A DNA stretch of 64,000 nucleotides, taken from NCBI GenBank assembly GCA_020634015.1, contig JACKCN010000003.1, forward strand, positions 173,429 to 237,428. Reading direction: 5' to 3'. Shown piece by piece: positions 14,861 to 58,065 of this stretch. Positions within the stretch are counted from its first letter, which is position 1. Each line of letters starts with the position of its first letter. A program made the position numbers and the translations under genes. Origin of the DNA: Candidatus Delongbacteria bacterium (lineage in GTDB: Bacteria; CAIWAD01). Below the pieces are notes generated by a model, which was given only the letters and a program-made list of their open reading frames with translations, had not been told where the DNA came from and made no database searches.

Positions 14861-15148
14861 GTGGCAACATCACGGTGCCTTCAGCTTTCGCGCGCCGCAG
14901 GTGGACCTGCTCGTCACTCGGGGCATTGCCCGGGAATGGCGGTCGGCGGGGCGGCCGGTCTGCTTGCCGGGGTGGGAATACTCATGACGCATGGCAGTGT
15001 CCACGATGTACTCCCGGGAGCATCTTTGCTCATCCTTGGGTTGACGACACTTCTTGGATTGGAAGCTGGTGCGATCGGGGGATTCATCATTGGCCATCCG
15101 GAGGTGTACCGGCCGGTCACAGGTCATCAAGAGGGGGCCGGTGAATGA
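14861..15148 (+). CDS. small membrane protein (hypothetical)
   Basis: Gly/Ala-rich TM helices. The stop overlaps the start of the next gene (ATGA). Confidence 0.3.
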   Translation: MATSRCLQLSRAAGGPARHSGHCPGMAVGGAAGLLAGVGILMTHGSVHDVLPGASLLILGLTTLLGLEAGAIGGFIIGHPEVYRPVTGHQEGAGE

Positions 15149-15720: not shown

Positions 15721-15765
15721 CGATGCTGACCATGGCCCAGTCCTGTCGACGTGGCTGCAACAGGC

Positions 15766-16827: not shown

Positions 16828-16850
16828 GGGTCATCCTCTCTGGGTCCGCC

Positions 16851-17657: not shown

Positions 17658-17660
17658 GGC

Positions 17661-18125
17661 TCAGGCCAGTTCCTTCAACCTGTCGAGCACGGCCTGGGCG
17701 TGTCCGGCCACCGAGACGGGGCTCCAGACCTCGGCCACCTTGCCTTCCGGGTTGATCAGCAGAGTGCTGCGCAGCACGCCCATGTACTCGCGACCCATGA
17801 ACTTCTTCAGTCCCCAGAACCCCAGAGCTTCCAGCAGGCTGTGCTCGGTGTCCGAGAGCAGAATCAGCTGCAGGTCCTTCTTTTCAATGAAGGAGCAGTG
17901 CTTCTTCGGCGTGTCCGGGCTGATCCCGACGACCTGGGCTCCCAGTTTCGCGAAGGACTTCTTCAAGGCCGTGAAATCGATGGCCTCGGTGGTGCATCCA
18001 GGAGTCAGATCCTTGGGGTACGCATACAGAACCCACCAAGCGCCCAGAAAATCCTTGGCGGTGCGCGTGGTTCCGTCCTGATCGGGCAGGCTGAAGGCGG
18101 GCAGTTTCTTGCCGGCTTGAATCAT
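17661..18125 (-). CDS. bcp: thioredoxin-dependent thiol peroxidase (Bcp-type peroxiredoxin)
   Basis: 'YPKDLTPGCTTEA' peroxidatic Cys motif. Start reassigned within track ORF 17661..18737 to MIQAGKK with an AAGGAG RBS. The gene lies 3 nt upstream of mutM, so the two are probably an operon. Confidence 0.85.
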   Translation of the reverse strand: MIQAGKKLPAFSLPDQDGTTRTAKDFLGAWWVLYAYPKDLTPGCTTEAIDFTALKKSFAKLGAQVVGISPDTPKKHCSFIEKKDLQLILLSDTEHSLLEALGFWGLKKFMGREYMGVLRSTLLINPEGKVAEVWSPVSVAGHAQAVLDRLKELA

Positions 18126-18364
18126 GGAATTCTCCTTGGTGACTGGTCCGCGTGCCCCATGCACGCGCATGGAAGGTCCCGAAAGTAGCGTCTTGGCGCG
18201 AAACCGGTCAGCAAACAACCCGCACCATCCCGGACCCGGGCACGGCCCTGTCCCCGAAACCCTATCTTCCGCCCCGTGGAACTCCCGCCATGTCCACAGG
18301 GTTGATGCAACCACCCCGGCACACTCCCGGCCGGGGCAAGGAGTGACGAAGCACGGAGCCTCAA

Positions 18365-42793: not shown

Positions 42794-44626
42794 TCACTTG
42801 CACAGCAGGACTTTCTGCTGCAGCAGCTCCGAGTCACCCTGGAGGCGCACGATGTATACGCCGGAGGCCAGAGTGGAGCCGTCCAGCCGAAAACTGTGCT
42901 CGCCCGTGCCCATCAGCCCCTCGTGGAGCCTGGCGACTTCCTGGCCGAGCAGATTGAAGATGCCCAGACTGGCGTGTTGTGCGTGGCTCACGACCACGCC
43001 CAGCACCGTGTCGGGATTGAACGGGTTGGGGAAGGCTGGCTGCAGGATCAGAGAACCAGGGAGTCCCGCCTGCGGAGCAAGCGAGGCGCTCGGATCGATC
43101 ACCAGAAACTGGCCCATCATGCCGGCGTCCTCGTGGATCAGCATGTGGCAGTGATACATGTATGGTACCGTGCTGCTGGCATGGTCAAGAAACTGGGTGA
43201 TGAACCGCACGGTCTGCATGGGCGGCACCAGAATCACATCCTTGCGCCCGCTCAGTGCGGGCAGGGGAGGCGCACCGTTCAGATCCAACACGTAGAACTG
43301 GACATCGTGGATATGGAATGGATGGGCGATCGGCGACTGGTTGGTGATCGACCAGATTTCGGTGGCCCCCAGCATGATCGTCTCGTTGATCATGCCCATG
43401 TCGAACTCGCTGCCATTGATCAGGAAGTGACCATTGAGCGCGTTGGGACCCGGAGTCATGGGAGTCAGCAGGAACTGCCGGAGCGTGTCGGCCTGGCTTT
43501 CTGGCAGGGGAGTCTGCGGCACCAGTTCCCCGGGAATGGTCAGCACCGGATTCTCGCTCTGCGCGCCGATGTTGAAGCGCATGACCTGAAAGTCGGTGCC
43601 GTTCATCGGATTCGGGTTGTATCCGGTCAGTACCTGCTGGGGCATCATTCCCGGCTGAAGGGCGCCGTATACGCCATTCGGCAGTTCCGAGGCATAGCTC
43701 ATCAGAGCGAGGGAACCCGTGTAGTTGGCGAAGTTCACCAGAATCTCCGCACGCTCGCCCGGGGAAAGCTGCAACCGGGTCAATGCCAGTGGCGAGCCCA
43801 GCAGGCCGCCATCGGAGGCGATCATCTGGAAGTTGCTGTTGTCTTCCAGCCCAAGGTTGAAGGTGCGCATCGAGGAGCCGTTCAGCAGGCGCAGGCGGAC
43901 CACCTGGCCCGGCACGGCAAGTTCCGCGTTGACGGTGGCATTCACCATCAGCACCGAGTCGGCATTCGAAGGCACGATGATCTGCCCGGTCTCATCGACG
44001 GTCTTGGTCTGGATCGCCAGAGGGAAGTCATCAACGCCGTAGGTGCGCGGCAGGTCCAGCGCGGCCTCTTCGGCGTCGCGCACGATCACGAAACCGGCGA
44101 TGCCCCGCGAGGCGTGCAGATTTGTGTTCTCGTGCAGGTGCGGGTGATACCAATAGGTTCCGGCCTTGTCCAGCACCGTGAACTGCGGGTTCCAGGTCGC
44201 CCCGGGCACGATCACGGTATGGGGACCGCCGTCATTCTCGGGTGACACATGCATGCCGTGCCAGTGGATGGTAGTGGTCGTGCCCAGTTGATTCTCAAGG
44301 AACAGGCTCACGTCCTCGCCCTGTTCCATGATCAGAGTCGGTCCCAGGACTGGCCCGTTCACCCCCATGGTGGCCGAATCGGTGCCCGGACGGAACTGCC
44401 AGCTGCCGGTCTGCAGGGTCAGCTGATAGGTTGGGCCTTCAAGGGTCGGCGGCAGCAGGATGGTGGCCCCGGCAGGACCTGTCCAGCCCGCCAGGGTCGC
44501 CAGGGCGATCACGCCAAGAATTCGTTGGCGCAGGAACGCGCAGGCAGGTTGAACAGGCAAGGAACAGATATCCACGCAGTCTCCAATCAGGTGATTCAAT
44601 GAGTGTGTGGGGGCGTGCTCAGGCAA
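42794..44626 (-). CDS. multicopper oxidase (CotA/CueO/bilirubin oxidase-like) with T9SS C-terminal sorting domain
   Basis: Four copper-binding His motifs ('IHWHGMHV', 'WYHPHLH', 'HPFHIHD', 'HCHMLIHEDAGMM'). The C-terminal ~80 aa, 'FPNPFNPDTVLGVVV...LGIFNLLGQEVARLHEG...LASGVYIVRLQGDSELLQQKVLLCK', fit the T9SS CTD. Confidence 0.85.
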   Translation of the reverse strand: MPEHAPTHSLNHLIGDCVDICSLPVQPACAFLRQRILGVIALATLAGWTGPAGATILLPPTLEGPTYQLTLQTGSWQFRPGTDSATMGVNGPVLGPTLIMEQGEDVSLFLENQLGTTTTIHWHGMHVSPENDGGPHTVIVPGATWNPQFTVLDKAGTYWYHPHLHENTNLHASRGIAGFVIVRDAEEAALDLPRTYGVDDFPLAIQTKTVDETGQIIVPSNADSVLMVNATVNAELAVPGQVVRLRLLNGSSMRTFNLGLEDNSNFQMIASDGGLLGSPLALTRLQLSPGERAEILVNFANYTGSLALMSYASELPNGVYGALQPGMMPQQVLTGYNPNPMNGTDFQVMRFNIGAQSENPVLTIPGELVPQTPLPESQADTLRQFLLTPMTPGPNALNGHFLINGSEFDMGMINETIMLGATEIWSITNQSPIAHPFHIHDVQFYVLDLNGAPPLPALSGRKDVILVPPMQTVRFITQFLDHASSTVPYMYHCHMLIHEDAGMMGQFLVIDPSASLAPQAGLPGSLILQPAFPNPFNPDTVLGVVVSHAQHASLGIFNLLGQEVARLHEGLMGTGEHSFRLDGSTLASGVYIVRLQGDSELLQQKVLLCK

Positions 44627-44649: not shown

Positions 44650-45021
44650 TCAGTCATCTCCAGGAGTCACTTTGCTCGCTGGATCAATCTCGTACAACTT
44701 GCGCTTCGCCGGAACTGTTGCCTGGGGCTCCAGCACTCGCACATTCTCCAGCACCCAGGCCCAGTAGCCCGGCTGCCAGCCGCTGGAACAGGCTGCCTGC
44801 ACCTCGTCCGGGCGCCAGGGATGCACGGCCACCACGTCCACGAGCGCCACGGCCCGTCCCTCCGGGTCTTCGGGCTGGTCCTCCGAGAGGAACAGTGAGT
44901 TCTCCACGATCAGCAGGTCGTGCAATGGCAAGACTGGAGGTTGCCACGAACGCACTTCCAGCGTCTTCTCGCCACGCGCAATCCGTGTGCCATTGGGCGC
45001 GACGATGGAAAGGGCGATCAT
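44650..45021 (-). CDS. ASCH (PUA-like) domain protein
   Basis: 'EKTLEVRSW...HDLLIVENS...VALVDVVAVHPW' matches the ASCH beta-barrel pattern. Start chosen at MIALSIV within track ORF 44650..45144, 1 nt after the upstream stop. Confidence 0.55.
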   Translation of the reverse strand: MIALSIVAPNGTRIARGEKTLEVRSWQPPVLPLHDLLIVENSLFLSEDQPEDPEGRAVALVDVVAVHPWRPDEVQAACSSGWQPGYWAWVLENVRVLEPQATVPAKRKLYEIDPASKVTPGDD

Positions 45022-45022
45022 C

Positions 45023-45412
45023 TCACGAATCCTTCGACACGTGTGCGGAATGCTCTGGCGATCCGGCAGGCGAATTCCTCCGCGCAGCCAGCGTTTTCTT
45101 GCGCTCCTCCGTGAAGTCCCACCAGGGACGCGGCTCATGGCCACTCATGAAGCGCGTGACCGAGATGAACACATCCAGCACGCAGGGATCCTGGCGGCAG
45201 GCGGTCATTTTGCACAACTGCTCATACATGACCCAGGGATCGCGCCCCACCAGATCGGTGGGTTCCTGAATGCCCAGCAGACGCAGATCAGCCGCGCTGG
45301 CCGGGCCGATGTTGGGCAGGTCGACAAGTCGTCTGGTTCTTGAGCGGATGACTTTGGTGGGGTTCATGGGGAGTGACTGCATTTTGATCCAAGCGCGTGA
45401 CCGCTCGATCAT
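45023..45412 (-). CDS. helix-hairpin-helix DNA-binding protein
   Basis: 'LVDLPNIGPASAADLRLLGIQEPTDLVGRDPWVMYEQL' is an HhH (TfoX-C/ComEA-like) motif. Start reassigned to MIERSRAW, which forms an ATGA overlap with the DUF45 stop. Confidence 0.5.
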   Translation of the reverse strand: MIERSRAWIKMQSLPMNPTKVIRSRTRRLVDLPNIGPASAADLRLLGIQEPTDLVGRDPWVMYEQLCKMTACRQDPCVLDVFISVTRFMSGHEPRPWWDFTEERKKTLAARRNSPAGSPEHSAHVSKDS

Positions 45413-45735
45413 GGGTTCGATTGACTGTGCATAACGTGCTTCAATTCTGCTTCGTACACCTCGTACTCGCCCAGATGGGCTCGCATGAAGACCTTCCAGA
45501 GCTTGCCGTGGTTGGGCGTGCGCAAATGGAGCAGCTCGTGAACAATGACATAGTCCTGCAGCTTGGAGTTCAGGTGCAGCAGATCGGTGCTGAAATTCAG
45601 ATGGCCTTTGGTCGAACACGAAGCCCACTTGGCGCGCATCGGGCGTACGGCAAGGCGGACGATTTTCACATCCAGTGCCGTTTCCCACTGGCGTACGCGG
45701 GCCTTGAAAGTGAGTACGCGGTCTGCCTGCGTCAT
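45409..45735 (-). CDS. DUF45/YgjP-like zinc metallopeptidase-fold protein (WLM/SprT-like)
   Basis: HExxH 'YVIVHELLHLRTPNHGKLW'. Proteins of this family commonly follow hsdR. The start is 4 nt after the hsdR stop. Confidence 0.7.
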   Translation of the reverse strand: MTQADRVLTFKARVRQWETALDVKIVRLAVRPMRAKWASCSTKGHLNFSTDLLHLNSKLQDYVIVHELLHLRTPNHGKLWKVFMRAHLGEYEVYEAELKHVMHSQSNP

Positions 45736-45739
45736 GGGA

Positions 45740-48661
45740 TCAAATCCGCCCGGCCTTGTCCAACAGCGAGAACAGCTCTTCCACGACATCGGCCACCTGC
45801 TGCAGGTCGTCCAGTTCGGCGGCTATCGCAAAAGTGACTTTCTGACGTAACTCTCGCAGGGTGGCTTCGCTTTTCTTCCAGTTGGGCAGGTCCACGAAGG
45901 CGGCCTTGATTCGCCCGCTGACCGATTCCGCATTGCCGACCCCTTTGTCCAGCAAGGTCCTGTAAACGAAATAGGTCAGGCCATCAAAGCCTTTGGCTGC
46001 CTGCTCCTTCTTGCGGAGTTCGTTGGCTTCCACGGCCTCAAGCAAGGTGGCCAGGGCTTCACTTGTGGAAGTCTGCCGCTCTTCGAAACTCTGCTGGACG
46101 GCCAGGGCTCGTTCCGCCATCGCGATCAGAAACGGATCGTCGCTTTCCTCTTCGGCCGTCTTCTGGATGCTGCGGATCAGGTTGATGACTTTCGTGCCTT
46201 CGCCGCCACGGGTTGACTTGATGAGTTCGATCGTATCCTCGTCGATCCGGATCCGGCCGCTGGGATCCGCGAGTCCATAGGTGCCCACCTGTTCCTGGAT
46301 CAAACTGCCCGTCTTGCGTTGGAACTCCCGGTCCACATAGACTGTCTTTGCAAAAGCCTTGCGCACCACGTGGTACATCGCTGCCAGTGATGTATAGGAA
46401 TCGATGAACGGCCGCAAGAAGGCATCCGGTGAGATGATTTCGTAAAGCATCTCGAGTTCCTTGAACTCCTTGAAGAATACCTTGCGCCGGTCGGCATCAC
46501 GAAAATGCTCGATCAGAGTTTCCACATCCTTGTCATTGAAGTTCTGTTCAATCAGGGCGAGATACGCCGGTGCCGATTGTTCCATCCTGGATTTGAACAA
46601 TTCCTTGAGCAGCTTCAGATCCTTGACGATGGCGTTCACTTCGTCGCTGTCGAAGGCCAGCGCCTTTGACAGCTTGTCAAAGATGCCCACGAAATCCAGC
46701 ACGAAACCGTGTGGCTTCACCATTTCCTGTGCTTCGTTCTCGTACGGGCGGTTCACCCGGGCAATGGCCTGCAGCAGAGTGTGGTCACGCATCGGCTTGT
46801 CCAGATACATCGCGTACAGCACGGGTGCATCGAAGCCCGTCAGCAGTTTCTCGGTGACGATGAGAATCTTCGGCTGCTGGTCCAGCTTGCCAAAGCTCTT
46901 GCGGATCTGGCGTTCACGCTTGCTCTCAAGATGGAACTCCTTCAGCAGGGCCGAATCGTTGTTGTTGTCCGTGTACACCACCTCCGAGTAATCGGGCGGC
47001 AGAAACTGGTCCAGCGCATGTTTGTACATCGCACAGGCTTCGCGGTCCACACCTACCAGAAAGCCTTTGTAACCCAGCGGCTCCACGGTTTCCCGGTAGT
47101 GACTGGCGACGAACTGTGCCACCTGCTGGATACGCTGTGCCCCTTTGAGGAAGTTTTTCAGGGTCACCGCCCGCTCAAGGATCTTGTTCAGTTCCTCAAT
47201 GTCGGCCACGCCTTCGGCTTCGGCGAGGGAGAGAAACTCCTTGTCCAGAGTTTCGTGCGGAACGAGCAGTTCGTTGGGGGCGAGCTGGTAGTACAGCGGC
47301 AGGGTGGTGCCGTCCTCGATACTGTCCGAGATGGAGTACTTGTGCAGGTAGCCCCGGTCATCTTCGCAGCCGAAGGTCTTGAAGGTACCCTTGCCGTAAA
47401 CGGTCCTGTCCACCGGCGTTCCCGTGAAGCCGATGTAGGTCGCATTCGGCAGACCGGCCATCAGGAAGTTGCCCAGATCGCCACCAGTGGTACGGTGGGC
47501 TTCGTCAATAAGCACGTAGATATTGGTGCGCGTGTTGATATCCGCAGGCATGTCGCGGAATTTGTGCACCATGGTCACGATGATACCGCGGTAGTCATCC
47601 CTCAGCAGCTGGTTGAGTCGATCGATGCTGCTGGCGTGCTCCAGATTGCCCATGCCGAGCGCGGCCAGATTCTTCAGCATCTGATCTTCCAGCTCGTTGC
47701 GGTCAATCATCAGCAGCACGGTGGGCTTGTCGGCTTCCGGTGCGCGGAAGAGCTTTTCCGCCGCCTTGATTATGGTGAAAGTCTTGCCGCTTCCCTGGGT
47801 GTGCCAGACGAGGCCCCGCCTGCGTCCGGGATCGAGGGCCCGACCGACAGTCGCTTCCACGGCGCCGGTCTGGTGCTGGCGCAGGATGTATTTGTTCAGC
47901 TCCTCGTCCTTTTCGGCGAAGACGATGTAGTCCTTCAGAAAGGCCAGCACCTGCGGAATGGCACAGAAGCTGCGAACCTTGGCCTCCAGCTTGCCGAGCT
48001 CCGTGTCCTTCCAGTTGAAGATGTTCCGCCGCACCGTATTCCAACTTGCACCGTATGAGAAGCCGATCGCGTCGGTGGCGGTGAACAGTTGTTGCGACAC
48101 GAACAGTTCGGGAGTCTCGCGGTGGTAGCGGCGGATCTGGTCCACCCCCAGGGCAATCGCCTCGTCCTTGCTGGCGTTCTTGCACTCGATCACCAGTACG
48201 GGGATGCCATTGATGAGAAAGACCACATCTTCCCGCGTTCCGTAGCGCCCGTTGTGAAAGGCCCACTCCTCGGTCACTTCGTAGACATTGTTCGTTGGCT
48301 CGTCGTAGTCGATCAGGTTCAGGTCGCGCTCGCGCTTCTCCTGGTGATCGAAGAACTTGCCGTGGTTTCGCAGGTGCTCGACGAATTCACGGTTTCCGTA
48401 AATGTCGGTGTGTAGGCGACGGAACTGTCCGGGCAGAGCACCCGCGGCCTCGGCGTAACACGGGTTGAACTCCCGCACCTTGCTGTCCAGCAGAGCCTCG
48501 AAGTAGAGCGAACGGTTCCGGGCTCGGTCGGCAACCGGCGTGTCGGGATCAAACCCGCGCCGCTGCTCAGCTGCGGCACGGGACACAACAGTCCAGCCGA
48601 TAGCCTCGGCGTAGGCGAGGATCCGGGATTGGACGGTTTTATGTTCTCCGGGTGTGAGCAT
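45740..48661 (-). CDS. hsdR: type I restriction enzyme R subunit (helicase/endonuclease)
   Basis: N-terminal nuclease region and SF2 helicase motifs ('HTQGSGKTFTIIKAAEKL' motif I, 'IYVLIDEAHRTTGG' motif II DEAH). The 973-aa length is typical of HsdR. Confidence 0.92.
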   Translation of the reverse strand: MLTPGEHKTVQSRILAYAEAIGWTVVSRAAAEQRRGFDPDTPVADRARNRSLYFEALLDSKVREFNPCYAEAAGALPGQFRRLHTDIYGNREFVEHLRNHGKFFDHQEKRERDLNLIDYDEPTNNVYEVTEEWAFHNGRYGTREDVVFLINGIPVLVIECKNASKDEAIALGVDQIRRYHRETPELFVSQQLFTATDAIGFSYGASWNTVRRNIFNWKDTELGKLEAKVRSFCAIPQVLAFLKDYIVFAEKDEELNKYILRQHQTGAVEATVGRALDPGRRRGLVWHTQGSGKTFTIIKAAEKLFRAPEADKPTVLLMIDRNELEDQMLKNLAALGMGNLEHASSIDRLNQLLRDDYRGIIVTMVHKFRDMPADINTRTNIYVLIDEAHRTTGGDLGNFLMAGLPNATYIGFTGTPVDRTVYGKGTFKTFGCEDDRGYLHKYSISDSIEDGTTLPLYYQLAPNELLVPHETLDKEFLSLAEAEGVADIEELNKILERAVTLKNFLKGAQRIQQVAQFVASHYRETVEPLGYKGFLVGVDREACAMYKHALDQFLPPDYSEVVYTDNNNDSALLKEFHLESKRERQIRKSFGKLDQQPKILIVTEKLLTGFDAPVLYAMYLDKPMRDHTLLQAIARVNRPYENEAQEMVKPHGFVLDFVGIFDKLSKALAFDSDEVNAIVKDLKLLKELFKSRMEQSAPAYLALIEQNFNDKDVETLIEHFRDADRRKVFFKEFKELEMLYEIISPDAFLRPFIDSYTSLAAMYHVVRKAFAKTVYVDREFQRKTGSLIQEQVGTYGLADPSGRIRIDEDTIELIKSTRGGEGTKVINLIRSIQKTAEEESDDPFLIAMAERALAVQQSFEERQTSTSEALATLLEAVEANELRKKEQAAKGFDGLTYFVYRTLLDKGVGNAESVSGRIKAAFVDLPNWKKSEATLRELRQKVTFAIAAELDDLQQVADVVEELFSLLDKAGRI

Positions 48662-48968
48662 GAGTTACAGATTCTCGCTCGGCGCTGGTGGAAAGCCCGA
48701 GAGTTGGGTCACATGATTCCACGAGCAAATCGGCTTGACTGAGTATTCAGAACTCTCAAAGTCAGCAGGAGGATTTGTGTGCGTCTTCATTCTCTTGGCC
48801 ATCGTTGAATTTGCGTCTCCCGATTGAAGGGGCAGCTGAAAACCGCAGGCTATCCCAACATTGAGTTTGTATGTGTATGCCCAAATGGATCGAGATATTC
48901 GTACGTCTCCTATGGGCATCAACATTCAAAGATTGGCATGATTCAGGTCGTGTCTGCTGATTCAGTGC

Positions 48969-51050
48969 TCAATTTGCGGGTAGTCCGAGTTTGTCAAAGA
49001 ACGCGCGATTCCGTTCTTTCGCCATATTTACAAGGCGGCCAAAGGAGATCACTTCCACATAGGCGTTTACGTTGTCCTTATAGCCAAAATAACCCTGTCC
49101 ATCAGAAGTGCGCTTGAGGTTGTGATGAATTCGACAGCGCTTTTCAAACGATGGTGTAAGGTCTGCGAGGATGTAGCAGAAACCTGGAACAACATTGTTT
49201 TGGAGTGATGGAATGGGCCGCCCAGTTGATGTCATCACACCTCCTTGTCGAATTCTTTCAAGATAGTCGATCGCCTGTTCGATGGGGTCATGGTCCTGAC
49301 CCGCCTTTGCATCATTCCGCATCGGTCGTTTTATCTCCACAATCTCGATGCTGGCAGGCGGAAGCTTGGTTCCTTCTGAAACCAAAATCGGTTGATCGAA
49401 GACATTCAAGACGCAGATATCGGGTTCCTTACCATCTCCAGATGCTGTAATGGGAATCGACTTGAGCGGTTTATCCGAAGCTAGGTAATCATGGAACGCG
49501 AGCCTTTCATCGACTAGCCATAAATTGCAACTGTCCATCAGGAGTTCCGAGCTATCCTTCCGCATTTGAATAATGAGGCTGTGAATTAACTCCTCCCGAA
49601 CGTAGTTCCCGTGCACATCCTTCTCGATAGCCTTTTCGAAGAGGTCAATAATCACCCGCCGGTGCGAAACGTAACTCGCAAGATCTGATTTCTTGATGTC
49701 CGCGGCTTTTGCCAAGTAAGACTCGAGCTTAGTCCTGTATTGTTCATCCAGTGGTGCGTGAGTTTGGCTGAGGATGTCGTGCCCTTCGCTTATAAGTTCC
49801 CTCTCGAAATTTGCGAACTGTTTATGAAGAGTGAGTTCCAGATCCTTGTCCGAAATGTCGGGATCGATATTTAGTTCAGTCTCAGGAATTCGAGAGAGGA
49901 TGGGGCGATAGCGGGGCGCCTTGGTTGCAACAAACGTCGAGACCTTGTCTTTCGAGCGCTGCAAGTTTTTCTCGAGATGCTCTGCCAGTTGCACTTTTGC
50001 TCGCTCTACTACCGCCTCTCGAATGTCGTTGAGGCCGATCTCTGTGTTCGCAAATAGCCCATCGACATTGTCGATAATTTCAAATCCTGTGCGCTCAGGA
50101 CGTACATTTTCATCTAAAAATGCCGAACTCACATAACAGGAATAAACGAACTCGCCGTTAGCATCTGTGAGTTTCCCGTGTAGCCCCGGCAACTTGCCGG
50201 ACAGCTTTTCTTCTGCGACCAGTCGATTGTCGGCGCAGAACGCGATGAAATGCGCCGAGAGGGAGGTATACCTGAGCCGGACATGAACGAGGTCGAATGA
50301 CTGTTCCTTGATGGAAATGGTTTCCGGAACGGCCGAAGAATGCATGTGAGCATCGTAGACATCATTTATTGAAATCAATTCTGCTTCATCAACGAGTTCG
50401 ATTAGCGGTGCACCACCCTGCCTGATGAAATACCACAGGCAGTGCTCAAAAATGCTATCAGCTATCGCGCCAGGGGTTTTACGTGCGTACTCGCGATAGC
50501 GCGTATTGAACTCATCAAGGTGGACACTGGTACTGATCGAAGAACTTACGGGTGCCGTGTAGTTTTCCTCATTAGAGACTCCGCCGTCGGCGCTAAAGGT
50601 GAAAGTGCGCTGAAAGAGGCTTTCACCCACTCGATAGGTACTTTCAACTCGGACGTTCTTGAAGGCTTTGAGCCAGAGCAAGCGTCCTATTCCACGGCAA
50701 CCCTTTTGGATTTTATGTTCTGAATCAAGTGTCCGGAACGACAGCATGTTGTCGTCTGTGAATCCGATTCCGTTATCCTCAATTTTAAATCCGACAATGT
50801 CCTCAAGTGCATCCGGCCCTCTCTTCTTGGAATCTCTCAGATTCAAGGATCCTTGTTTTGATCCCCGAAGAATAGTGACCCGGATTCGACCGTCTTCTGT
50901 GGAAACACTCGCTTCCTCAAGTGCATGAATCGAATTCACTACCGCCTCAAACAGTGGAAGAAGGCCACTTGTCAAGGGTAGGGGGGTGTTTCTGAGCCGA
51001 CCGCCTAAATTTGCCGGCATCGTGCTTGTTGATTTCGGCGATGTGCTCAT
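48969..51050 (-). CDS. GHKL (Bergerat-fold) ATPase with putative C-terminal PD-(D/E)xK nuclease-like module, embedded between hsdS and hsdR
   Basis: N-box 'FEAVVNSIHALEEA' (ExxxNxxxA) and G1-box 'IVGFKIEDNGIGFTDDN' (DxGxG). The C-terminal 'ICVLNVFDQP...(19)...IEIVEIKRP' fits D...ExK. Low GC (~50%). 4-nt overlap with the hsdS stop. Confidence 0.7.
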   Translation of the reverse strand: MSTSPKSTSTMPANLGGRLRNTPLPLTSGLLPLFEAVVNSIHALEEASVSTEDGRIRVTILRGSKQGSLNLRDSKKRGPDALEDIVGFKIEDNGIGFTDDNMLSFRTLDSEHKIQKGCRGIGRLLWLKAFKNVRVESTYRVGESLFQRTFTFSADGGVSNEENYTAPVSSSISTSVHLDEFNTRYREYARKTPGAIADSIFEHCLWYFIRQGGAPLIELVDEAELISINDVYDAHMHSSAVPETISIKEQSFDLVHVRLRYTSLSAHFIAFCADNRLVAEEKLSGKLPGLHGKLTDANGEFVYSCYVSSAFLDENVRPERTGFEIIDNVDGLFANTEIGLNDIREAVVERAKVQLAEHLEKNLQRSKDKVSTFVATKAPRYRPILSRIPETELNIDPDISDKDLELTLHKQFANFERELISEGHDILSQTHAPLDEQYRTKLESYLAKAADIKKSDLASYVSHRRVIIDLFEKAIEKDVHGNYVREELIHSLIIQMRKDSSELLMDSCNLWLVDERLAFHDYLASDKPLKSIPITASGDGKEPDICVLNVFDQPILVSEGTKLPPASIEIVEIKRPMRNDAKAGQDHDPIEQAIDYLERIRQGGVMTSTGRPIPSLQNNVVPGFCYILADLTPSFEKRCRIHHNLKRTSDGQGYFGYKDNVNAYVEVISFGRLVNMAKERNRAFFDKLGLPAN

Positions 51051-52216
51051 AAGGAAATCTCCAATCTGTGAACGCGGGACTTCGCGGTCATCAGTTCGTG
51101 AAGGAGGGTGAGGAAGAGGTCTTGGAACGAGTGTTTGCGACTCTCGTGAAAGGTGATCTTTGATTCGACCGTTTCCAGCGCTTCGCCGATCTCCACCTGT
51201 TGGCCCTTTGGGGGGACAACGATCTTCTCGCCGTGGACAATATTCCGATTCAATGTTGGGTTTGCGGCTCCCGTGTCGAATCGCTTCAGTCGCATAGTCT
51301 TAAGCAAGTAACCGACAAATCGGGGATCGTTCCCTTTGAAATCTTTCACCCAAAGAGTCGTGTCATGAGGCCAATAGTCGGTTGGAATATAGTGGACCGT
51401 TCCGAGGGTGCCCTTACGCCCGATAACGACCCCCGGGCCCTTTACTTTCGGTTCATCGTGATAGCTGCTAACGCCTCCAGATGAGACGACCGGATACTCT
51501 CCGGGTCTTTGGTCCTTTTTCGTGATGTCGAATCCTCTTTGAAGAACAGCGAATGAATCGAAGCGTTTGACCTCCCAGCTTTCGGGGACGGGGCCGATTT
51601 CGGTTTGTTTTTGGGGTTCGTTGCGAAGGCCTTCGGTGAAGAGCTTGTGCATGAGAGCCTTCTTCAGCTCTGTGGTTGTCTGAATGATCCGCTCCTGCGC
51701 TTCGATCGCCTTCTGCACCGTCGACAGGATGTGCGCCATCTTCTTCTGTTCGGCTAGTGGGGGGAGTGAAAGGCGGAATTCCTTCAGCGAAGGCCACGAT
51801 GTCCTGGGATGCTGAACCCCGCTCGTCGTTGATTTTGCGTGGTCGATGAATTCATTGCTGTGGATGACAAACTTCAAGTACTCTGACTCACAGGAAGGCG
51901 TAGCACGAAATGCGAGAATGTCCGTTGAGCATACACCATCAAAATTGGCCCGTGCGCCTTTGCGGAGATACGGACGAAGCTTTCCAAAGAGAATGTCGTC
52001 TACTTTGAAGGCCGTCTTGGCGGACTTCACGTCGCTTTCTTTTCCTCGGCCAACAAACACGGGAAATCCTTGGGCCAGGTGCTCAAGGCCTACATATGGT
52101 GTGTCGCCGCCTTCGATTGGTTTGTATGAATCCTTCACACGATTGCATATGTCACCAAACTTGTGGTTTTCCCATCCAGGAGGCAGTGGATCAAGAAGCA
52201 AGTTGGAATCGCTCAT
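51047..52216 (-). CDS. hsdS: type I restriction-modification specificity subunit
   Basis: Two target-recognition domains separated by the conserved central and C-terminal coiled-coil repeats ('SLPPLAEQKKMAHILSTVQKAIEAQERIIQTTTELKKALMHKLFTEG' and 'LLHELMTAKSRVHRLE'). Start reassigned to MSDSNLLLDP with a GGAG RBS. The upstream part of track ORF ..52348 begins with GTG and is unlikely to be coding. Confidence 0.85.
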   Translation of the reverse strand: MSDSNLLLDPLPPGWENHKFGDICNRVKDSYKPIEGGDTPYVGLEHLAQGFPVFVGRGKESDVKSAKTAFKVDDILFGKLRPYLRKGARANFDGVCSTDILAFRATPSCESEYLKFVIHSNEFIDHAKSTTSGVQHPRTSWPSLKEFRLSLPPLAEQKKMAHILSTVQKAIEAQERIIQTTTELKKALMHKLFTEGLRNEPQKQTEIGPVPESWEVKRFDSFAVLQRGFDITKKDQRPGEYPVVSSGGVSSYHDEPKVKGPGVVIGRKGTLGTVHYIPTDYWPHDTTLWVKDFKGNDPRFVGYLLKTMRLKRFDTGAANPTLNRNIVHGEKIVVPPKGQQVEIGEALETVESKITFHESRKHSFQDLFLTLLHELMTAKSRVHRLEISL

Positions 52217-52466
52217 GCTCCGTATTTCTCCTGAGATTTTTTGAAAGCCTTGTTCACCCATCGTATTGTAGCTGTCACTTTCACTCCCCGTGGAAGACCA
52301 GTGTATACGTTGACCCAGCCTATCTCCTTTTCTGCGTCTAGGCCACACAACGCATGTTGCCAGCCTGGCCTTCCACAGGCTCGGAGGCTTACGGGATGGC
52401 TTACTGGTCGAGCCCCAGCGGCTTTATGGGGTGCGACTATTATGGCTTGTTCGTGCGTTTTCACGA

Positions 52467-52796
52467 TTAGCCCTTTTCTTGGTTTGCCTGCTTGAGCAAG
52501 GTGCGGCCCTTGTCGGTAAGGCGATACTGCTGAAGGCGGCTGGTGGGCTTGTCCGGATTGGTGCGCTCCACCAGTCCCTCGGCCAGTGCCGGGTCGATGG
52601 TGGTTTCGCGCAGGCGTCGGCGATCCCTCAGGGCAAAGGCTTCCAGGATCTCGGCGTTGGTCAGGGTGCCGGGGTTCCAGACCTCCAGCCGGTCGGTGAA
52701 TAGCATGACCTGGACACTGCCGTTGCTGTTGTGATCGCGGTGGGCCACGGCGTTGACGATGGCCTCGGCCGCCACGTCCTCTCGCCAGATTGGCAT
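52467..52796 (-). pseudogene. 3' fragment of an HATPase_c_4 plus winged-helix gene (truncated paralog of 53021..54511)
   Basis: It encodes only 'AIVNAVAHRDHNSNGSVQVMLFTDRLEVWNPGTL...' (the HATPase_c_4 core) and a terminal wHTH ('YRLTDKGRTLLKQ'). There is no N-terminal domain. The upstream part of the track ORF is non-homologous filler. Confidence 0.5.
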
Positions 52797-53020
52797 GAGC
52801 AATGGCGGGATCGGTCGTTTCCGGAACGAGGTGCCGAACAGTCCTGCCATTGGTGCGCGAAGTTCTGCGGGATATCCCGGAAGTCTCCAACCCAAGCTTT
52901 TCCTCTCGCCATTTTGGCGCGAGAAATGGCGTGAGAGCTTGCTTTCCCCCAGGAAAGGGTCAGTCTCGCGCCATTCTGGCGAGAGGCTTGGCGAGACGGT
53001 GGGCCTGTGACTGAGCAATC

Positions 53021-54511
53021 TCATGGTTGGAGGATGCGGTATTTGGTCGCGTTTCCTCTGCCTTCCTTCTTCAGGAAACCGAGGTCCACGAGGTGTTTGA
53101 GGTGGTTGAGAGATGTGCGATTCGGAATCTCCATGGCCTTTTTATACTCAGCGGCGGAGACGATCTCTCTTGCGGCCAACCACTCCCAGCCCCTGCGTTC
53201 CGCGGGGCTGAGCTGGTCGAGTATTTCCGCTGGCAGGGCCTGTGTCGCCGCCTGGGCAGTGCGGTAAAGAGTCAGGTCAAGATAGGGTGCGGTATAACTG
53301 AACTTCGGAAGGGGAAGGCCTGCTTCCGTCGCTTTGCTGCGCATGGACTTGAGGCCCAGACCGCGTTCCTCGGCAAGTTCCATGGTGTTGAAAACCGCAT
53401 GCAGTCGCGGATTGCGGCTGACCATGGGCGCGGTGAACGACTGCAATTGCTCGAGAGTGATCGGGGCGACGGGGGCGCCGGGACTGCGGATGGTCACCGT
53501 GTCGCCGGTTACCACCAGTTGGATCTTGCAGCCCTCGATGTCGTAGTCACGGTGAACGAGGGCATTGGCGAGGCCTTCGCGAACCAGTTCGTAGAAGGCA
53601 TCATTGATACTCGTCCGTTGGGCATTCGAGCGATTGATGGCATCGGGCAGTTTCTCGCGCAGCCAGGCAATCACCTGACTGGGGCCCAGCACCATGGGAC
53701 CGTCAAAATCTCTGAGTTCTTCCCCTGTACCACGGGCAATCGTCGCCATGACACCTGCCTGGAGAAGAATGTCGCGGGGGTGTTCTCCGAAGAGAAGGTG
53801 GGCGAATCGTGTTGGTGCGAGAATGCCGTCTGTGGTTTTCACCAGCAGACCCTGGTGAGACAACCGGCGATGGAACTCGTCGTCGCTGCCCGTGCCTTTC
53901 TTGAACAGAAAGCGGCGGTAGTAGCTGAGCGCTTCGTTGTCGAGATCCTGCATGGACACCTGAGCAGGATTCTGGTCGTAGAGGGAAGGCGCCAGGGTTG
54001 GCCCCTCTTCCATCTGCTCGGCCTTTCGTCGCGCCTGATCGAAGAAGTCGGCATTCTCCCGCTCGATGATTTCCTGCAGGTCCCGGTCGAATGGAATGAC
54101 CTCGACGCCCATCTGTCGCAGGTAGCGAAGGCCCTCCCCGGCAACCTTGGGATGTGGGTCCTCACAACCGTAATAGACCGTCTTGATTCGTGCGTTGGTG
54201 ATACGTCGCGAACACCCGATCTTCGGCACAGTGCGGGACATGGGGCCGCAGGGTTCCAGAGTGGCAAAGAGAACACAGTCGCTGAGATCCACAGCACCAT
54301 TCTTGCGCTCGATCAGGGTGTATTCAGCATGGTCGCCCTCGCGCAGCTCACCCCGACTGGCCGTTCGAGTCGTTCCATCGGGCATCCAGAGCACAGCCCC
54401 GACTTTCGGAGGGACCGTATCGTCAGCACGCCTCTCGCGTATGGAAGCCTTCATGACTTCCACCGCTTGCTCCATCAGCTTTCTCGGATCGAATGGCGTT
54501 GACCTGGCCAA
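53021..54511 (-). CDS. fusion protein: N-terminal CDA/RibD-like zinc deaminase domain, then central domain, then HATPase_c_4 (Schlafen/'RecG-like' ATP-binding) and C-terminal winged helix
   Basis: Deaminase zinc ligands 'HAEYTLIE' and 'TLEPCGPMSRTVPKIGC' (HAE...PC..C). The HATPase_c_4 core 'NALVHRDYDIEGCKIQLVVTGDTVTIRSPGAPV...RNPRLHAVFNTMELAEERGLGLKSM' is followed by the wHTH 'SAAEYKKAMEIPNRTSLNHLKHLVDLGFLKKEGRGNATKYRI'. It lies between hsdM and hsdS. Confidence 0.7.
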   Translation of the reverse strand: MARSTPFDPRKLMEQAVEVMKASIRERRADDTVPPKVGAVLWMPDGTTRTASRGELREGDHAEYTLIERKNGAVDLSDCVLFATLEPCGPMSRTVPKIGCSRRITNARIKTVYYGCEDPHPKVAGEGLRYLRQMGVEVIPFDRDLQEIIERENADFFDQARRKAEQMEEGPTLAPSLYDQNPAQVSMQDLDNEALSYYRRFLFKKGTGSDDEFHRRLSHQGLLVKTTDGILAPTRFAHLLFGEHPRDILLQAGVMATIARGTGEELRDFDGPMVLGPSQVIAWLREKLPDAINRSNAQRTSINDAFYELVREGLANALVHRDYDIEGCKIQLVVTGDTVTIRSPGAPVAPITLEQLQSFTAPMVSRNPRLHAVFNTMELAEERGLGLKSMRSKATEAGLPLPKFSYTAPYLDLTLYRTAQAATQALPAEILDQLSPAERRGWEWLAAREIVSAAEYKKAMEIPNRTSLNHLKHLVDLGFLKKEGRGNATKYRILQP

Positions 54512-54523
54512 TGGTGGACCCTC

Positions 54524-56083
54524 CTAGACCCCGATCTGCTTCAGAATCTTCATCAAAGCCTTGTCCGTCTCACGAGCTTCGGCTTCGATGACCTTCAACT
54601 CCGCGACAATCTCCGCAATCGGGCGGTAGGTCTCCGCGTCGCTGGTGTGTATGTAGCGACTCGGTGAGATGTTGTAGTCGTTTTTCTTCAACTCGGCGTG
54701 ATCGACGATGCGGCTGAGCTTTTCCTCTTCCTTCCACCCGATGAGGGTCTCGGCGATGCGTTGGATGCCTGCGTCCGGGATGAAGTTCTTGGGCTCGCCC
54801 TTTTCGAAGATCTGACTGGCGTTGACGAGAAAGACCTTGCCCTGACGGGATTTGGGCTTGGCCCTGTTGAGAAAGAGCACAATGCCCGGGGCAGTGGTGT
54901 TGTAGAACAGATTTTCCGGCAGATAGAGTACGCTCTCGATCAGATCCTGATCCACGAACCACTGGCGTACCGTGCGTTCCTTGTTGCTGCCGGCATTGCC
55001 CGAGCCACGCGAGGCAGCACCCGTGTCGAGAACCACGGCAGCACGGCCCGTGTCGTTCAGGCAGGCGTGAATGTGCTGAACCCAGCCCCAATCGGCGGAG
55101 GACTTTCCCGGGAAGCCCGCACCGGCGGGGAAGCGGTCCAACTCGTCGGCGTCGTAGTCGGCCTCGGTGAACGAGTCCTGGTTCCACATGGGATTGGCGA
55201 CGACACGGTCGAAAGTGCGCAGCCTGCCCCGGCGGTCACGGAATTTTGGGTTCTTGAAAGTGTCACCGATTTCGATCTGACCTTCCATGTCGTGGATGAT
55301 CATGTTCATGCTGGCCATGGCCCAGGTTTCCGGTATGTACTCCTGGCCAAACAGCTTCAATGGAGCCACGCTGCGTTGCTTGCCTATGGAGCGTTCCTCC
55401 ATGGCGATCTCGCACTTCACGAGCAGCCCGCCGGAACCACAGGTAGGGTCATGGATTTCCATGCCCGGTTCGGGCTGGAGGACGCGTGACATGATCGTGC
55501 CGACTTCCGGTGGTGTGTAGAACTCGCCCGCGCTTGAGCCACTGCCCTCGGCGAACTTGCGGATGAGGTATTCATAGCTCTTGCCGATGATGTCGGCCTC
55601 GACATCATCCAGCCCAAGACGCTTGCTGCTGATGGCTTCGATCAGGTTCGAGAGCCGGTCGTCGTCGAGATCGCGCACGCCGTGAGTCGTGGCGTTGAAG
55701 TCCACGCGATCGATGATGCCCTGCAGCTGCGAGTTCTCTCTGGCAATGGCCCGCATCTGGGTGGTGACATTTTCACCGATTCTGTCGGCGAGCTTGCGGA
55801 TTACGGACCAGACAGGCAGATCGGGGTCATCAGGCACAAGGGGGAGGTAGAAACGGACCAGTTTGTGATCGGCCTTGACGAGTTGGAATGCCTTCTTGCG
55901 CGATCCGACTTCCTTGGCAATGCGGTTCACCTCGTCATCGAAGACATCACATAGACGCTTGGTGAAGATCAGCGGAAGGATGTAGTCCTTGAACTTCGGG
56001 GCATCCTTGGCCCCGCGAATTGAGCAGGCGGCGCCCCAGATCCATGATTCCAGCGACTTGCCATTGCCTTTGTTGTTTGCCAT
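54524..56083 (-). CDS. hsdM: type I restriction-modification DNA methyltransferase subunit (N6-adenine)
   Basis: HsdM N-terminal domain, an AdoMet-binding motif I 'IHDPTCGSGGLLV' and a catalytic motif IV 'VVANPMWNQ' (NPPF/W-type). GAAGGA RBS. Start reassigned to MANNKGN. Confidence 0.9.
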   Translation of the reverse strand: MANNKGNGKSLESWIWGAACSIRGAKDAPKFKDYILPLIFTKRLCDVFDDEVNRIAKEVGSRKKAFQLVKADHKLVRFYLPLVPDDPDLPVWSVIRKLADRIGENVTTQMRAIARENSQLQGIIDRVDFNATTHGVRDLDDDRLSNLIEAISSKRLGLDDVEADIIGKSYEYLIRKFAEGSGSSAGEFYTPPEVGTIMSRVLQPEPGMEIHDPTCGSGGLLVKCEIAMEERSIGKQRSVAPLKLFGQEYIPETWAMASMNMIIHDMEGQIEIGDTFKNPKFRDRRGRLRTFDRVVANPMWNQDSFTEADYDADELDRFPAGAGFPGKSSADWGWVQHIHACLNDTGRAAVVLDTGAASRGSGNAGSNKERTVRQWFVDQDLIESVLYLPENLFYNTTAPGIVLFLNRAKPKSRQGKVFLVNASQIFEKGEPKNFIPDAGIQRIAETLIGWKEEEKLSRIVDHAELKKNDYNISPSRYIHTSDAETYRPIAEIVAELKVIEAEARETDKALMKILKQIGV

Positions 56084-56149
56084 ATGCAAACGGTCCTTCG
56101 AGTTTCCTGCAATGATGCTTCTCGTTCTGTGATTCCAAATCAATCGAAG

Positions 56150-57124
56150 TCAAGCCAAAGACTCCCGATGGACAACTGCTTCACGAAGCTGATTGATTCT
56201 GGTTGCCAATTCCATCTGCAAACTGCTCAGTTTCGCGGATTGGACATCCGCTCGCTCACGAGTCTTCACCGCCCAGTCACTGCCTTTGAATCTCGACAGG
56301 TTCAAGTAGACGATGGACAATGAACCCGAAGCGGCGGCCAATGCGGAACTCAATGCAACTCCGGAATCGCCGCGCGCCGCTTTGAACCCCAGATCAAAGA
56401 CAATCAGTGCCTTCTCTGCAAGTGTCAGACATACTTCGGCGATTTCGATTGGGATATCTGTCGCCTTCCTTAGCTCTTCAAGTGCCCGCTCCGAAAGTGC
56501 GCGCCTCTTGTTCCTGTCCTCTTCGGCATCTCGCAGTCGCCTGGCCTGAATGACACGTTCGAACTGCTCTGAGTCACTCTGTAATGCGCTCACCAGTTTG
56601 GGTTCGATGCCGTTCAGGATATCCTGGTTGGCCAATGTCAACTGGGGGACGACTCCTTGATACTGATCTCGGCCATTCGTCAGAGACACAACTGTCTGCA
56701 ACAGTTTGCACGCAAGCAATCCAATCAGCGCGGCGGCACTTCCGGATCCAGGTTTGTGATTCCCGGAGCCGAATTTGTTCAGCAGCTGATCCGCCGGCAA
56801 CTTGATCAACTCTCCAGTCACAACTTGTCCTTCCAAATGGCCACCCATTGGCTGGGATGTGGTGCTTTCATTGAAATGGCCGGCTATCGGTGCTTCGGCT
56901 GACTGCCCCACAAAACCTACTGCTTGCCGATCGCACTGTGAAACAACATATCGATATGGCGAACTGCCAAGGAACGCTGCACAACCATCCGTGGCCCAGA
57001 CTTTTCTGCGGATGCGTGGTGGATTGCGATCAGACAGGGCGTTCTTGGCTGGAGAGATGTGTGGAGTGTCAGCTGGTGTGTGAGCCATGGCGGCTGGCGC
57101 TGCTGTCAACTCATTGAAAATCAT
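56150..57124 (-). CDS. cyclodeaminase/cyclohydrolase (FTCD_C-like) family protein
   Basis: 'GSGSAAALIGLLACKLLQTVVSLTNGRDQY', then 'DSEQFERVIQARRLRDAEEDRNKRRAL' and 'DSGVALSSALAAASGSLSIVYLNL', follow the FTCD_C/FchA pattern. Low GC. The true start may be the internal Met near 56848. Confidence 0.55.
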   Translation of the reverse strand: MIFNELTAAPAAMAHTPADTPHISPAKNALSDRNPPRIRRKVWATDGCAAFLGSSPYRYVVSQCDRQAVGFVGQSAEAPIAGHFNESTTSQPMGGHLEGQVVTGELIKLPADQLLNKFGSGNHKPGSGSAAALIGLLACKLLQTVVSLTNGRDQYQGVVPQLTLANQDILNGIEPKLVSALQSDSEQFERVIQARRLRDAEEDRNKRRALSERALEELRKATDIPIEIAEVCLTLAEKALIVFDLGFKAARGDSGVALSSALAAASGSLSIVYLNLSRFKGSDWAVKTRERADVQSAKLSSLQMELATRINQLREAVVHRESLA

Positions 57125-57330: not shown

Positions 57331-58065
57331 CTACCGTACGACCCATGCGATCAGACCGATGCCCGCGAGCAGAAGCAGGAGGTCCAGCAGCGTCAGGCGG
57401 AGACTGGTCTTGCCGCGCTGGGTGGGGATCAGGTCCGCGAGGGCCACGTAGATGAACCCCGCGGCGGCGAAGGACAGCAGATAGGGGCCCGCGTGGTGCA
57501 TCTGCGAGAGGAAGAAATATCCAAGGGCAGCGCCGACAACCGCAGTCAGGCTCGTCACGGCGTTGAGGAAGAGGGCGCGTCGTCGCGTGTAGCCGCTGCT
57601 GAGGTAGACCATGAATTCGCCGACTTCCTGCGGTACTTCATGGGCGATGGTCGAGAGTGTCACGGTCAGACCCAGTGGCACGGAACTCAGGAAGGCGCCC
57701 GCGATGACCACGCCGTCAACGAAGTTGTGAAACGCGTCGCCGATGAGCAGGAGCGGCCCGGAGCTGGCGTGAACATCACAGTCGTGCTTGTGGCAATGAC
57801 GCCACACCAGCAGCTTTTCGAGCACGAAGAAGCTGACGATTCCGACCAGCATGGCTTGTGCCACTGTGGACGTGGGCAGGGAATCGGCCGCGTGGGGGAT
57901 CATGCCCAGCATGGCGGCCCCCAGCAGTGTGCCGGTGGAAAAACTGATCAGCCGCGGCAGTGCGCGTTCCAGACGGGCAGGCTTGACGGTCAGGACCGTG
58001 GCGGCCAGAAGGACGGAGACGATGCCTCCCGCCAGGGATGCGAAGAGGATCAGCAGAAGGATCAT
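57331..58065 (-). CDS. zupT: ZIP family metal (zinc) transporter
   Basis: 8 TM helices. The 'HNFVDGVVIAGAF' and 'HEVPQEVGEFMVY' metal-binding helices are typical of ZupT/ZIP. Confidence 0.85.
   Translation of the reverse strand: MILLLILFASLAGGIVSVLLAATVLTVKPARLERALPRLISFSTGTLLGAAMLGMIPHAADSLPTSTVAQAMLVGIVSFFVLEKLLVWRHCHKHDCDVHASSGPLLLIGDAFHNFVDGVVIAGAFLSSVPLGLTVTLSTIAHEVPQEVGEFMVYLSSGYTRRRALFLNAVTSLTAVVGAALGYFFLSQMHHAGPYLLSFAAAGFIYVALADLIPTQRGKTSLRLTLLDLLLLLAGIGLIAWVVR

Follow-up and report, generated by a model that had tools for sequence, protein, structure and literature searches.

Does a type I restriction-modification (RM) operon that carries two additional ATPase genes encode one coupled immunity module, or is it a site at which independent defence genes are exchanged? 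The question is raised by a locus at 44650-57124 of a 64,000-nt window of Candidatus Delongbacteria DNA (contig JACKCN010000003.1; coordinates given below for this locus are positions within the window). Here, a gene for a deaminase fused to a HATPase_c_4 (PF13749) ATPase lies between hsdM and hsdS, and a gene encoding a 693-amino acid (aa) protein with a GHKL ATPase lies between hsdS and hsdR. A sequence-only reading of the window had proposed that these two inserts form a specific RM-coupled module. Our analysis indicates that the locus is, very probably, a horizontally acquired type I RM operon used as a landing pad by independent, swappable single-gene defence cassettes. The cassette in the hsdS-hsdR slot would be a member of the VcSduA family and that in the hsdM-hsdS slot a fusion of a deaminase, a PF13749 ATPase and a winged helix. 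Through embedding, both genes would be expressed and mobilised along with the operon, without being obligatorily coupled to it in mechanism. The organisation of the island and the GHKL-nuclease are already known; the deaminase on a PF13749 chassis is new to the literature that we searched.

The two inserts occur independently of each other

The context of each insert family was analysed in its own sample of loci (labelled L001, L003 and so on). The VcSduA-like sample comprised 80 genome loci with fetched flanks. The deaminase sample comprised 80 fetched loci, many of them on short contigs, of which 20 had both flanks of at least 3 kb. The two inserts were never found together, as none of the 80 deaminase loci contained a VcSduA-like gene and none of the 80 VcSduA-like loci encoded a deaminase domain. 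Type I RM genes were located near 29 of the 80 VcSduA-like genes and no RM genes were present within the fetched flanks of 43. For the deaminase, hsd genes were found at 43 of the 80 loci; in the subset with both flanks of at least 3 kb they were found at 13 of the 20, the other 7 having no RM genes. Either family is found in type I RM operons far more often than expected by chance. In line with the earlier view, we regard the inserts as defence genes and not as random passengers.

A distance tree of the VcSduA-like family showed that embedded and free copies interleave, even at approximately 85% identity to the window protein (L004 is embedded; L003 and L005 are free). Clustering of the neighbouring genes of this family returned hsdS (25 loci), hsdR (18), hsdM (16) and PF13749-type proteins (12), and revealed no conserved partner gene beyond these hsd and PF13749 genes. 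Other immediate neighbours were genes typical of defence islands, namely UvrD, AbiEii, DarT-associated NADAR, Eco57I, SduA_C, GmrSD, AAA_21 and RhuM. The slots of sister operons were occupied by RhuM together with a DUF4062-PF13749-Fic-like_C gene (L001), by SLFN-PF13749 (L010) or by GmrSD (L054, L066). A RhuM-family gene recurred in five related operons (L001 at 7661-8725, L002, L012, L038 and L042), placed either in the hsdM-hsdS slot or 3′ of the VcSduA-like gene.

Among RM-embedded deaminase loci the commonest order was hsdM-hsdS-deaminase-hsdR. The closest relatives on long contigs, L170 and L171 (68-70% identical), had the arrangement of the window, with the deaminase gene 11 nt after hsdM. 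L171 (ENA ERZ22147072 ctg24574l, 7418-19494) encoded hsdM, the deaminase fusion, small open reading frames (ORFs), DUF4062 and PF13749, hsdS, HamA with a helicase (Hachiman) and hsdR, such that Hachiman fills the slot that the VcSduA-like gene has in the window. Three embedded systems are thereby contained within this one type I RM operon. The deaminase locus L169 had no type I RM genes and lay among Mrr-type enzymes, and further neighbours of the fusion family were RadC, Abi_C, AAA_13, GmrSD, TIR and HerA.

Embedding of this kind has been catalogued previously. A total of 17,432 genes embedded in type I RM, BREX, DISARM or Hma systems have been listed, in which AlbA_2+HATPase_c_4+HTH constitutes FAM_00002 and PrrC is the extreme case (Payne et al. 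2024 preprint), and 602 of 5,499 Shedu genes have been located within RM systems (Gu et al. 2023 preprint). Among the Schlafens (SLFN) of prokaryotes that are associated with defence, more than 50% are linked to RM or other nucleases, and SLFN-minimal proteins with a histidine kinase and a winged helix-turn-helix (wHTH) are located beside BREX-type loci in >1,000 taxa. The present locus represents the same phenomenon, namely RM operons of several genes within which unrelated defence genes, often solo elsewhere, are nested, although neither insert matched a PDC or HEC model in PADLOC-DB v2.0.0 and only one marginal PDC-M23B match was obtained, in a relative.

The lack of co-occurrence, the RM-free copies, the interleaved tree, the swapped slots and the published embedding together argue for a cassette hotspot and not for a conserved two-insert module. 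The specific module proposed from the sequence was therefore not sustained: in sister operons these slots are taken by Hachiman, GmrSD, RhuM, SLFN-PF13749 or canonical Shedu, and the 693-aa gene proved to belong to a system that already has a name, VcSduA, which the sequence-only reading had itself regarded as an argument against coupling.

The gene between hsdS and hsdR is a VcSduA homologue

By its alignments, the 693-aa protein, which was 100% identical to MCB9473666.1, is a clear homologue of VcSduA (Shedu type I-D, or paraMORC3). It showed 46% identity (E 1.4e-127, 408-aa alignment) to the VcSduA of V. cholerae C6709 (GTF73_RS11690), the first ~400 aa of which were taken as printed in the preprint's supplementary table of model hits. 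The Burkholderia and Bordetella hits of the authors' VcSduA model were 51-52% identical to the window protein, and the Bordetella hit included the nuclease segment. A homologue in Vibrio fluvialis has its catalytic Glu at position 27 and Lys at position 556, compared with E27 and K557 in VcSduA.

An N-terminal MORC/MutL-like GHKL ATPase with motifs I-IV and an S5/Hsp90-like middle domain were present in the protein. The GHKL motifs (E35, N39, D92xGxG96 and G120xG122) were kept in 38 close and 65 distant relatives, and the same relatives conserved a RecB-like PD-(D/E)xK set in the C-terminal third (E486/H490, P543-D544, E572xK574 and Q592xxxY596). Weak Pfam SduA_C matches were found in 3 of the 65 relatives (best 6.7e-4), and one relative had a PADLOC SduA match. 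Sequence and profile searches of the family against the PDB returned noise only. The family comprised 4,043 representatives at 50% identity (E<=1e-3) and was found in 379 GTDB species genomes.

VcSduA (A1552VC_00276) alone confers protection from T1-like phages in E. coli and from phage X29 in V. cholerae; defence is lost in the E27A or K557A mutants, and the protein does not depend on GrwAB, its neighbour (Adams et al., Nat Microbiol 2025; PMC12137116). The paraMORC3 architecture was defined by Iyer, Abhiman and Aravind (2008), and many of its members are standalone. GHKL-bearing Shedus constitute type 1D among the Shedus with enzymatic domains (Gu et al. 2023 preprint). The window protein resembles VcSduA in its length class (~670-690 aa), in the succession of GHKL motifs I-IV, a middle domain of the Hsp90/MORC-like type and a putative PD-(D/E)xK nuclease at the C-terminus, and in a patchy, horizontally spread distribution that is often standalone and at times within RM loci. 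If the protein behaves as VcSduA and further GHKL enzymes do, its GHKL and middle module would dimerise on ATP and thereby gate the C-terminal nuclease, which would cut phage DNA; the protein would work alone and spare the host. The two differ in setting, as the window copy occupies the hsdS-hsdR slot with translational coupling to hsdS, whereas VcSduA adjoins a GmrSD-like system in VSP-II. The window copy also escapes the standard Pfam SduA_C and PADLOC v2.0.0 SduA models.

One VcSduA-like gene is located on a mobilisable IncC plasmid of Vibrio fluvialis from a diarrhoea patient (L168; NZ_AP028130.1, 1-10007). This locus encoded hsdR, an ABC/AAA ATPase, hsdM, hsdS, a canonical 'Shedu immune nuclease family protein' and a VcSduA-like gene, such that two unlike Shedu-type genes in tandem end the type I RM operon.

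A deaminase on a PF13749 chassis follows hsdM

The fusion protein consists of a RibD-like cytidine deaminase (CDA)-fold domain (residues ~10-160), a middle region, a PF13749 GHKL ATPase (residues 327-415) and a C-terminal tail of ~65 residues. Residues 13-160 matched dCMP_cyt_deam_1, Inv-AAD, MafB19-deam and RibD deaminase domains, and the best PDB matches were RibD deaminase domains (2.7e-9) and, for the GHKL part, 3lmm (7e-6). Alignment of 36 homologues showed that the zinc site (H61-A-E63 and P87-C88-x11-C100) and the ATP site (E312 and N316, ExxxN) are invariant, and the HATPase_c_4 match spanned the full profile. The HxE and PC...C zinc motifs are those of CDA-fold zinc deaminases of the helix-4 division (RibD/TadA/dCMP-deaminase-like). 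The tail was conserved and resembled a winged helix; it had no Pfam match in the window protein, and the relatives P0205 and P0208 carried PF13545. The RibD equivalog score was 48.8 bits against a cut-off of 156, and the reductase domain was absent. No SLFN_AlbA_2 match was found in the fusion, nor any PADLOC v2.0.0 match to models of known defence deaminases (AvcD-type dCTP/dCMP). The only PADLOC matches were partial ones to Aga/pAgo models via the PF13749 region.

The architecture was common to at least 120 protein clusters from several phyla (53-91% identity), and deaminase-specific peptide patterns retrieved at least 318 metagenome loci. Members were found in Verrucomicrobiota, Kiritimatiellia, Bacteroidota, Marinimicrobia and Delongbacteria. 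We found no description of a deaminase on a PF13749 chassis in the searched literature and no model for one in PADLOC v2.0.0.

Judged from its domains, the fusion is apparently an undescribed version of the 'Schlatpase' chassis in which the Schlafen RNase has been replaced by a deaminase. Like Schlatpases (SLFN(AlbA_2)-PF13749 GHKL-wHTH proteins, namely RzAgo SLFN-pAgo, pSlfn-HisKinase-HTH and FAM_00002), it has an N-terminal enzymatic effector, the ExxxN ATP site, the middle region and a putative C-terminal winged helix, and it is strongly embedded, as they are, in type I RM/BREX operons. It differs in having a RibD-like CDA-fold zinc deaminase at the position of the Schlafen RNase, where the L001 protein has DUF4062, and its chemistry would be deamination and not tRNA cleavage. 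The PF13749-wHTH chassis is thus combined with no fewer than three different effectors at its N-terminus, namely SLFN, DUF4062 and deaminase. Other deaminase effectors, namely AvcD/dCTP deaminase, RADAR RdrB and the CRISPR-associated Cad1, are gated by a fused or partner regulatory or ATPase module, as the fusion would be. However, RdrB and Cad1 belong to another deaminase superfamily (adenosine-deaminase fold) and AvcD to another clade (dCMP-deaminase with a kinase-like domain), whereas the presumed gating module of the fusion is a PF13749 GHKL ATPase and PADLOC returned no match to the models of these systems.

Cryo-EM and biochemistry of RzAgo revealed that ATP binding by the PF13749 domain drives tetramerisation, and that the Schlafen nuclease is assembled in its active form in this way. 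The fusion would, by analogy, use this ATP switch to assemble active deaminase oligomers upon infection, and the deaminase would then attack nucleotides or tRNA/nucleic acid in place of the Schlafen tRNase. The RibD-/dCMP-deaminase-like ancestry suggests nucleotides as candidate substrates, while the TadA-like similarity and the tRNase that was replaced suggest tRNA. We put forward, tentatively, that these fusions may constitute a class of anti-phage effector, each consisting of one protein, that has not been described before and in which a GHKL oligomerisation switch gates a RibD-like deaminase, with the hsdM-adjacent subclade (11-12 nt) perhaps acting as a PrrC-like back-up wired to the methyltransferase.

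Organisation and composition of the island

The region had a GC content of 0.558 compared with 0.638 in the remaining window, and all credible genes were on the minus strand (Table 1); the low-GC, single-strand island described by the sequence-only reading was thus confirmed. Long plus-strand ORFs within the island had no Pfam match. The GC content of the ASCH and Cdd1 genes (0.62-0.64) was host-like, so the low-GC stretch proper begins near 45.4 kb and extends to 57.1 kb (0.49-0.59; mean 0.56 compared with 0.64 outside). Both of these ORFs were absent from related loci, and it is doubtful that they belong to the island.

All three subunits of the RM enzyme look intact, with an hsdS that has two target-recognition domains and an hsdR that combines an N-terminal nuclease with superfamily 2 (SF2) translocase domains. 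The true start of hsdM is likely to be an internal Met near 56083 and that of hsdS is likely to be near 52212-52260. Pfam and PADLOC agreed with the earlier description of a type I operon with extra genes in its slots, and the inserts are, as had been recognised, Bergerat-fold ATPases fused to effector domains. PADLOC v2.0.0 called the RM genes only and left the inserts unassigned, which had been predicted. The order of genes was also as had been described, apart from an 86-aa ORF that had been missed (orf86). The start of the 693-aa gene overlaps the hsdS stop by 4 nt, as had been given, and the gap between hsdM and the fusion is 12 nt and not the 13 nt reported. Since the genes share a strand, this overlap and this gap, and no internal terminator signal exceeded chance, the inserts are likely to be co-transcribed with the RM genes; a scan of the operon for promoters and terminators found nothing above shuffled expectation.

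Table 1. Features of the island in order of transcription, with window positions and best model matches (GC3, GC content at third codon positions)
Feature	Position	Strand	Matches and remarks
FTCD_C-like	56150-57124	-	Pfam FTCD_C 4.6e-32; cyclodeaminase fold
hsdM methyltransferase	54524-56143	-	Pfam N6_Mtase 1.4e-86, HsdM_N 1.5e-18; PADLOC MTase_I 5.5e-160
Deaminase fusion, 496 aa	53021-54511	-	TTG start 12 nt after hsdM stop; Pfam HATPase_c_4 2.6e-16, dCMP_cyt_deam_1 1.3e-9
HATPase_c_4/Fic-like_C fragment, 185 aa	52467-53024	-	Pfam Fic-like_C 8.3e-16, partial HATPase_c_4 1.6e-4
hsdS	51047-52348	-	Pfam Methylase_S, two stretches, 1.7e-29; PADLOC Specificity_I 2e-58
VcSduA-like protein, 693 aa	48969-51050	-	GHKL ATPase, S5-like middle domain, helical linker, putative PD-(D/E)xK nuclease
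orf86, 86 aa	48665-48925	-	Between VcSduA-like gene and hsdR; no Pfam or PADLOC match; GC3 0.52
hsdR	45740-48661	-	Pfam SWI2_SNF2 1.3e-57, HSDR_N 1.7e-24, T1R_D3-like 1.5e-17; PADLOC REase_I 2.6e-91
YgjP/DUF45 metallopeptidase-fold	45409-45789	-	Pfam YgjP-like 9.6e-26; only C-terminal HExxH half
Cdd1 (HhH)	45023-45688	-	Pfam Cdd1 3.1e-32; domain at residues 116-198
ASCH	44650-45144	-	Pfam ASCH 1e-8

The composition of the island indicates a mosaic that points to separate acquisitions. GC3 was 0.52-0.57 in the block of hsdS, the 693-aa gene and orf86, 0.69 in the deaminase fusion and 0.76-0.77 in hsdM and hsdR (0.74-0.77 when the 185-aa fragment is included), compared with ~0.80 in the host. 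Protein identity between the window and L001 was 93% for the VcSduA-like protein, 89% for hsdM, 79% for hsdR and 57% for hsdS. Together, the GC3 and identity values suggest that the block from hsdS to the VcSduA-like gene was swapped in later than the rest of the operon. The borders of the island showed no att-like repeats, whether direct or inverted, and searches for an integrase and an adjacent tRNA were also negative.

The island is flanked by a multicopper oxidase (42794-44626) and a ZIP transporter (57331-58065). The multicopper oxidase ends in a Por_Secre_tail domain, a type IX secretion system (T9SS) sorting domain, which fits a host in the FCB-group/Delongbacteria lineage. A YgjP/DUF45 gene located 3′ of hsdR and overlapping its end was seen in the window and in L001, L002, L004 and L008, making it a conserved companion of this type I family.

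The 324-aa FTCD_C-like ORF is probably over-extended, with a true start near 56818, as homologues are ~223 aa long; some of these are fused to Peptidase_M78 (ImmA/IrrE-like). A role for this gene as part of the RM module was considered and rejected, because none of 80 related RM loci carried an FTCD_C-like gene and its contexts elsewhere were unrelated and variable (DUF3800, DUF4365 and transposases). The family may consist of accessory or defence-island proteins with a cyclodeaminase fold.

Two small ORFs have the appearance of remnants. In a tblastn comparison the 185-aa fragment matched the 526-aa DUF4062+HATPase_c_4+Fic-like_C protein of L001 only at residues 305-331 and 458-524. Because only these segments matched, the fragment is, on this alignment, a decayed second PF13749 gene of the DUF4062-PF13749-Fic-like_C type that has an internal deletion and has lost its N-terminus; all that is left is a portion of the GHKL N-box and the winged helix at the C-terminus. 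Its relative is intact in L001 (5956-7536) and split in L171 (12086-13553). We initially read the deaminase cassette as a replacement of a DUF4062-PF13749 gene; this was dropped, as L171 has both side by side and plain decay is at least as likely. The second ORF, orf86, weakly matched the N-terminus of a 199-aa protein encoded directly 3′ of the VcSduA-like gene in L003 (12109-12708) and L004 (12110-12709). The L004 protein had a Zn_ribbon_8 match, and one of these two loci has no RM genes. From this match, orf86 is possibly a truncated copy of the 199-aa Zn-ribbon protein, and could be a small accessory partner that has been truncated here.

Coupling to the RM system and other explanations

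Several observations weigh against reading the locus as a landing pad for independent cassettes. The 693-aa protein had no Pfam, NCBIfam or PADLOC v2.0.0 match and its C-terminal half no Pfam match at E<=10. An hhalign comparison of the family profile with one canonical Shedu (that of L168) was not significant, and the direct comparison with VcSduA covers the first ~400 residues of VcSduA. For the deaminase, the substrate, the activation signal and even the defence role are drawn only from context and analogy. Additionally, the VcSduA-like gene was found directly after hsdS on the same strand in 22 loci, with stop and start codons that abut or overlap (overlaps of 4 to 28 nt). As these loci represent divergent type I families (hsdM 26-89% identical), this strict placement is too regular for a random landing pad and leaves room for functional coupling.

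Such coupling could follow the E. coli prr locus (EcoprrI, hsdM-hsdS-prrC-hsdR), which resembles the window in having an extra defence gene in the hsdS-hsdR slot of a type I operon. One or both inserts would then be guards, held inactive by HsdMS(R) contact and firing when a phage anti-restriction protein disables the RM system. We consider this unlikely, even though the VcSduA-like gene occupies the exact PrrC slot and is translationally coupled to hsdS across those 22 loci, the deaminase fusion follows hsdM by 11-12 nt in the window, L170 and L171, both families are enriched in type I RM operons and the Schlafen authors speculate that RM-linked homologues sense DNA-cleavage products. VcSduA protects E. 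coli alone and independently of GrwAB (PMC12137116); 43 of 80 family members had no RM genes in their fetched flanks, and L003 and L004, at 85% identity to the window protein, differ in embedding. Of the well-flanked deaminase loci, 7 of 20 had no RM genes, and L169 lies among Mrr-type enzymes. The slots are also shared with the autonomous systems Hachiman and GmrSD. PrrC itself is different, being an ABC-type ATPase with an anticodon nuclease that the RM complex keeps masked until T4 Stp activates it. Neither insert is related to PrrC (no PrrC/ABC match in Pfam or PADLOC), and the VcSduA family acts without RM. The PrrC analogy of the sequence-only reading therefore holds for position in the hsdS-hsdR slot, but no evidence was found of a PrrC-like dependence on the RM complex.

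An explanation that concerns the deaminase fusion only is that it serves, not as an immune effector, but as a DNA-binding regulator or an enzyme of nucleotide metabolism that rides in the operon and, for example, controls hsd expression or modifies a base or cofactor. This is very unlikely. The putative winged helix at the C-terminus, the annotation of the family as 'RecG'/transcriptional-regulator-like in some sources, the closeness of the deaminase to the biosynthetic enzyme RibD and the lack of a match to known dCTP-deaminase defence models would all fit such a role. However, the RibD equivalog score falls far under its cut-off and the reductase domain is missing, the neighbours are defence genes (hsd, RadC, Abi_C, AAA_13, GmrSD, TIR, HerA, Mrr and Hachiman), the PF13749-wHTH chassis bears a toxic SLFN tRNase with a shown anti-phage function, and neither enzymatic domain varies in its catalytic residues. 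That the inserts are decaying, functionless passengers left by recombination in a mobile RM operon is hardly credible: the neighbouring 185-aa ORF is demonstrably a gene remnant and orf86 may be a truncated gene, but the two large inserts have kept their full length and every catalytic residue, and intact homologues from other phyla share 91-93% identity with them.

Implications

As a type I RM operon that very probably serves independent defence cassettes, the locus is a clean example of such operons acting as exchange sites. For annotation, the 693-aa 'ATP-binding protein' family (~4,000 clusters at 50% identity), which current models miss, can now be named as VcSduA-like Shedu. The deaminase fusion is the only part of the locus worth following up. 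It would place the PF13749-wHTH chassis as a general switch that bears varied toxic enzymes, whether Schlafen RNase, DUF4062 or deaminase, and is itself a compact candidate ATP-gated deaminase of relevance to phage defence and to base-editing enzymology.

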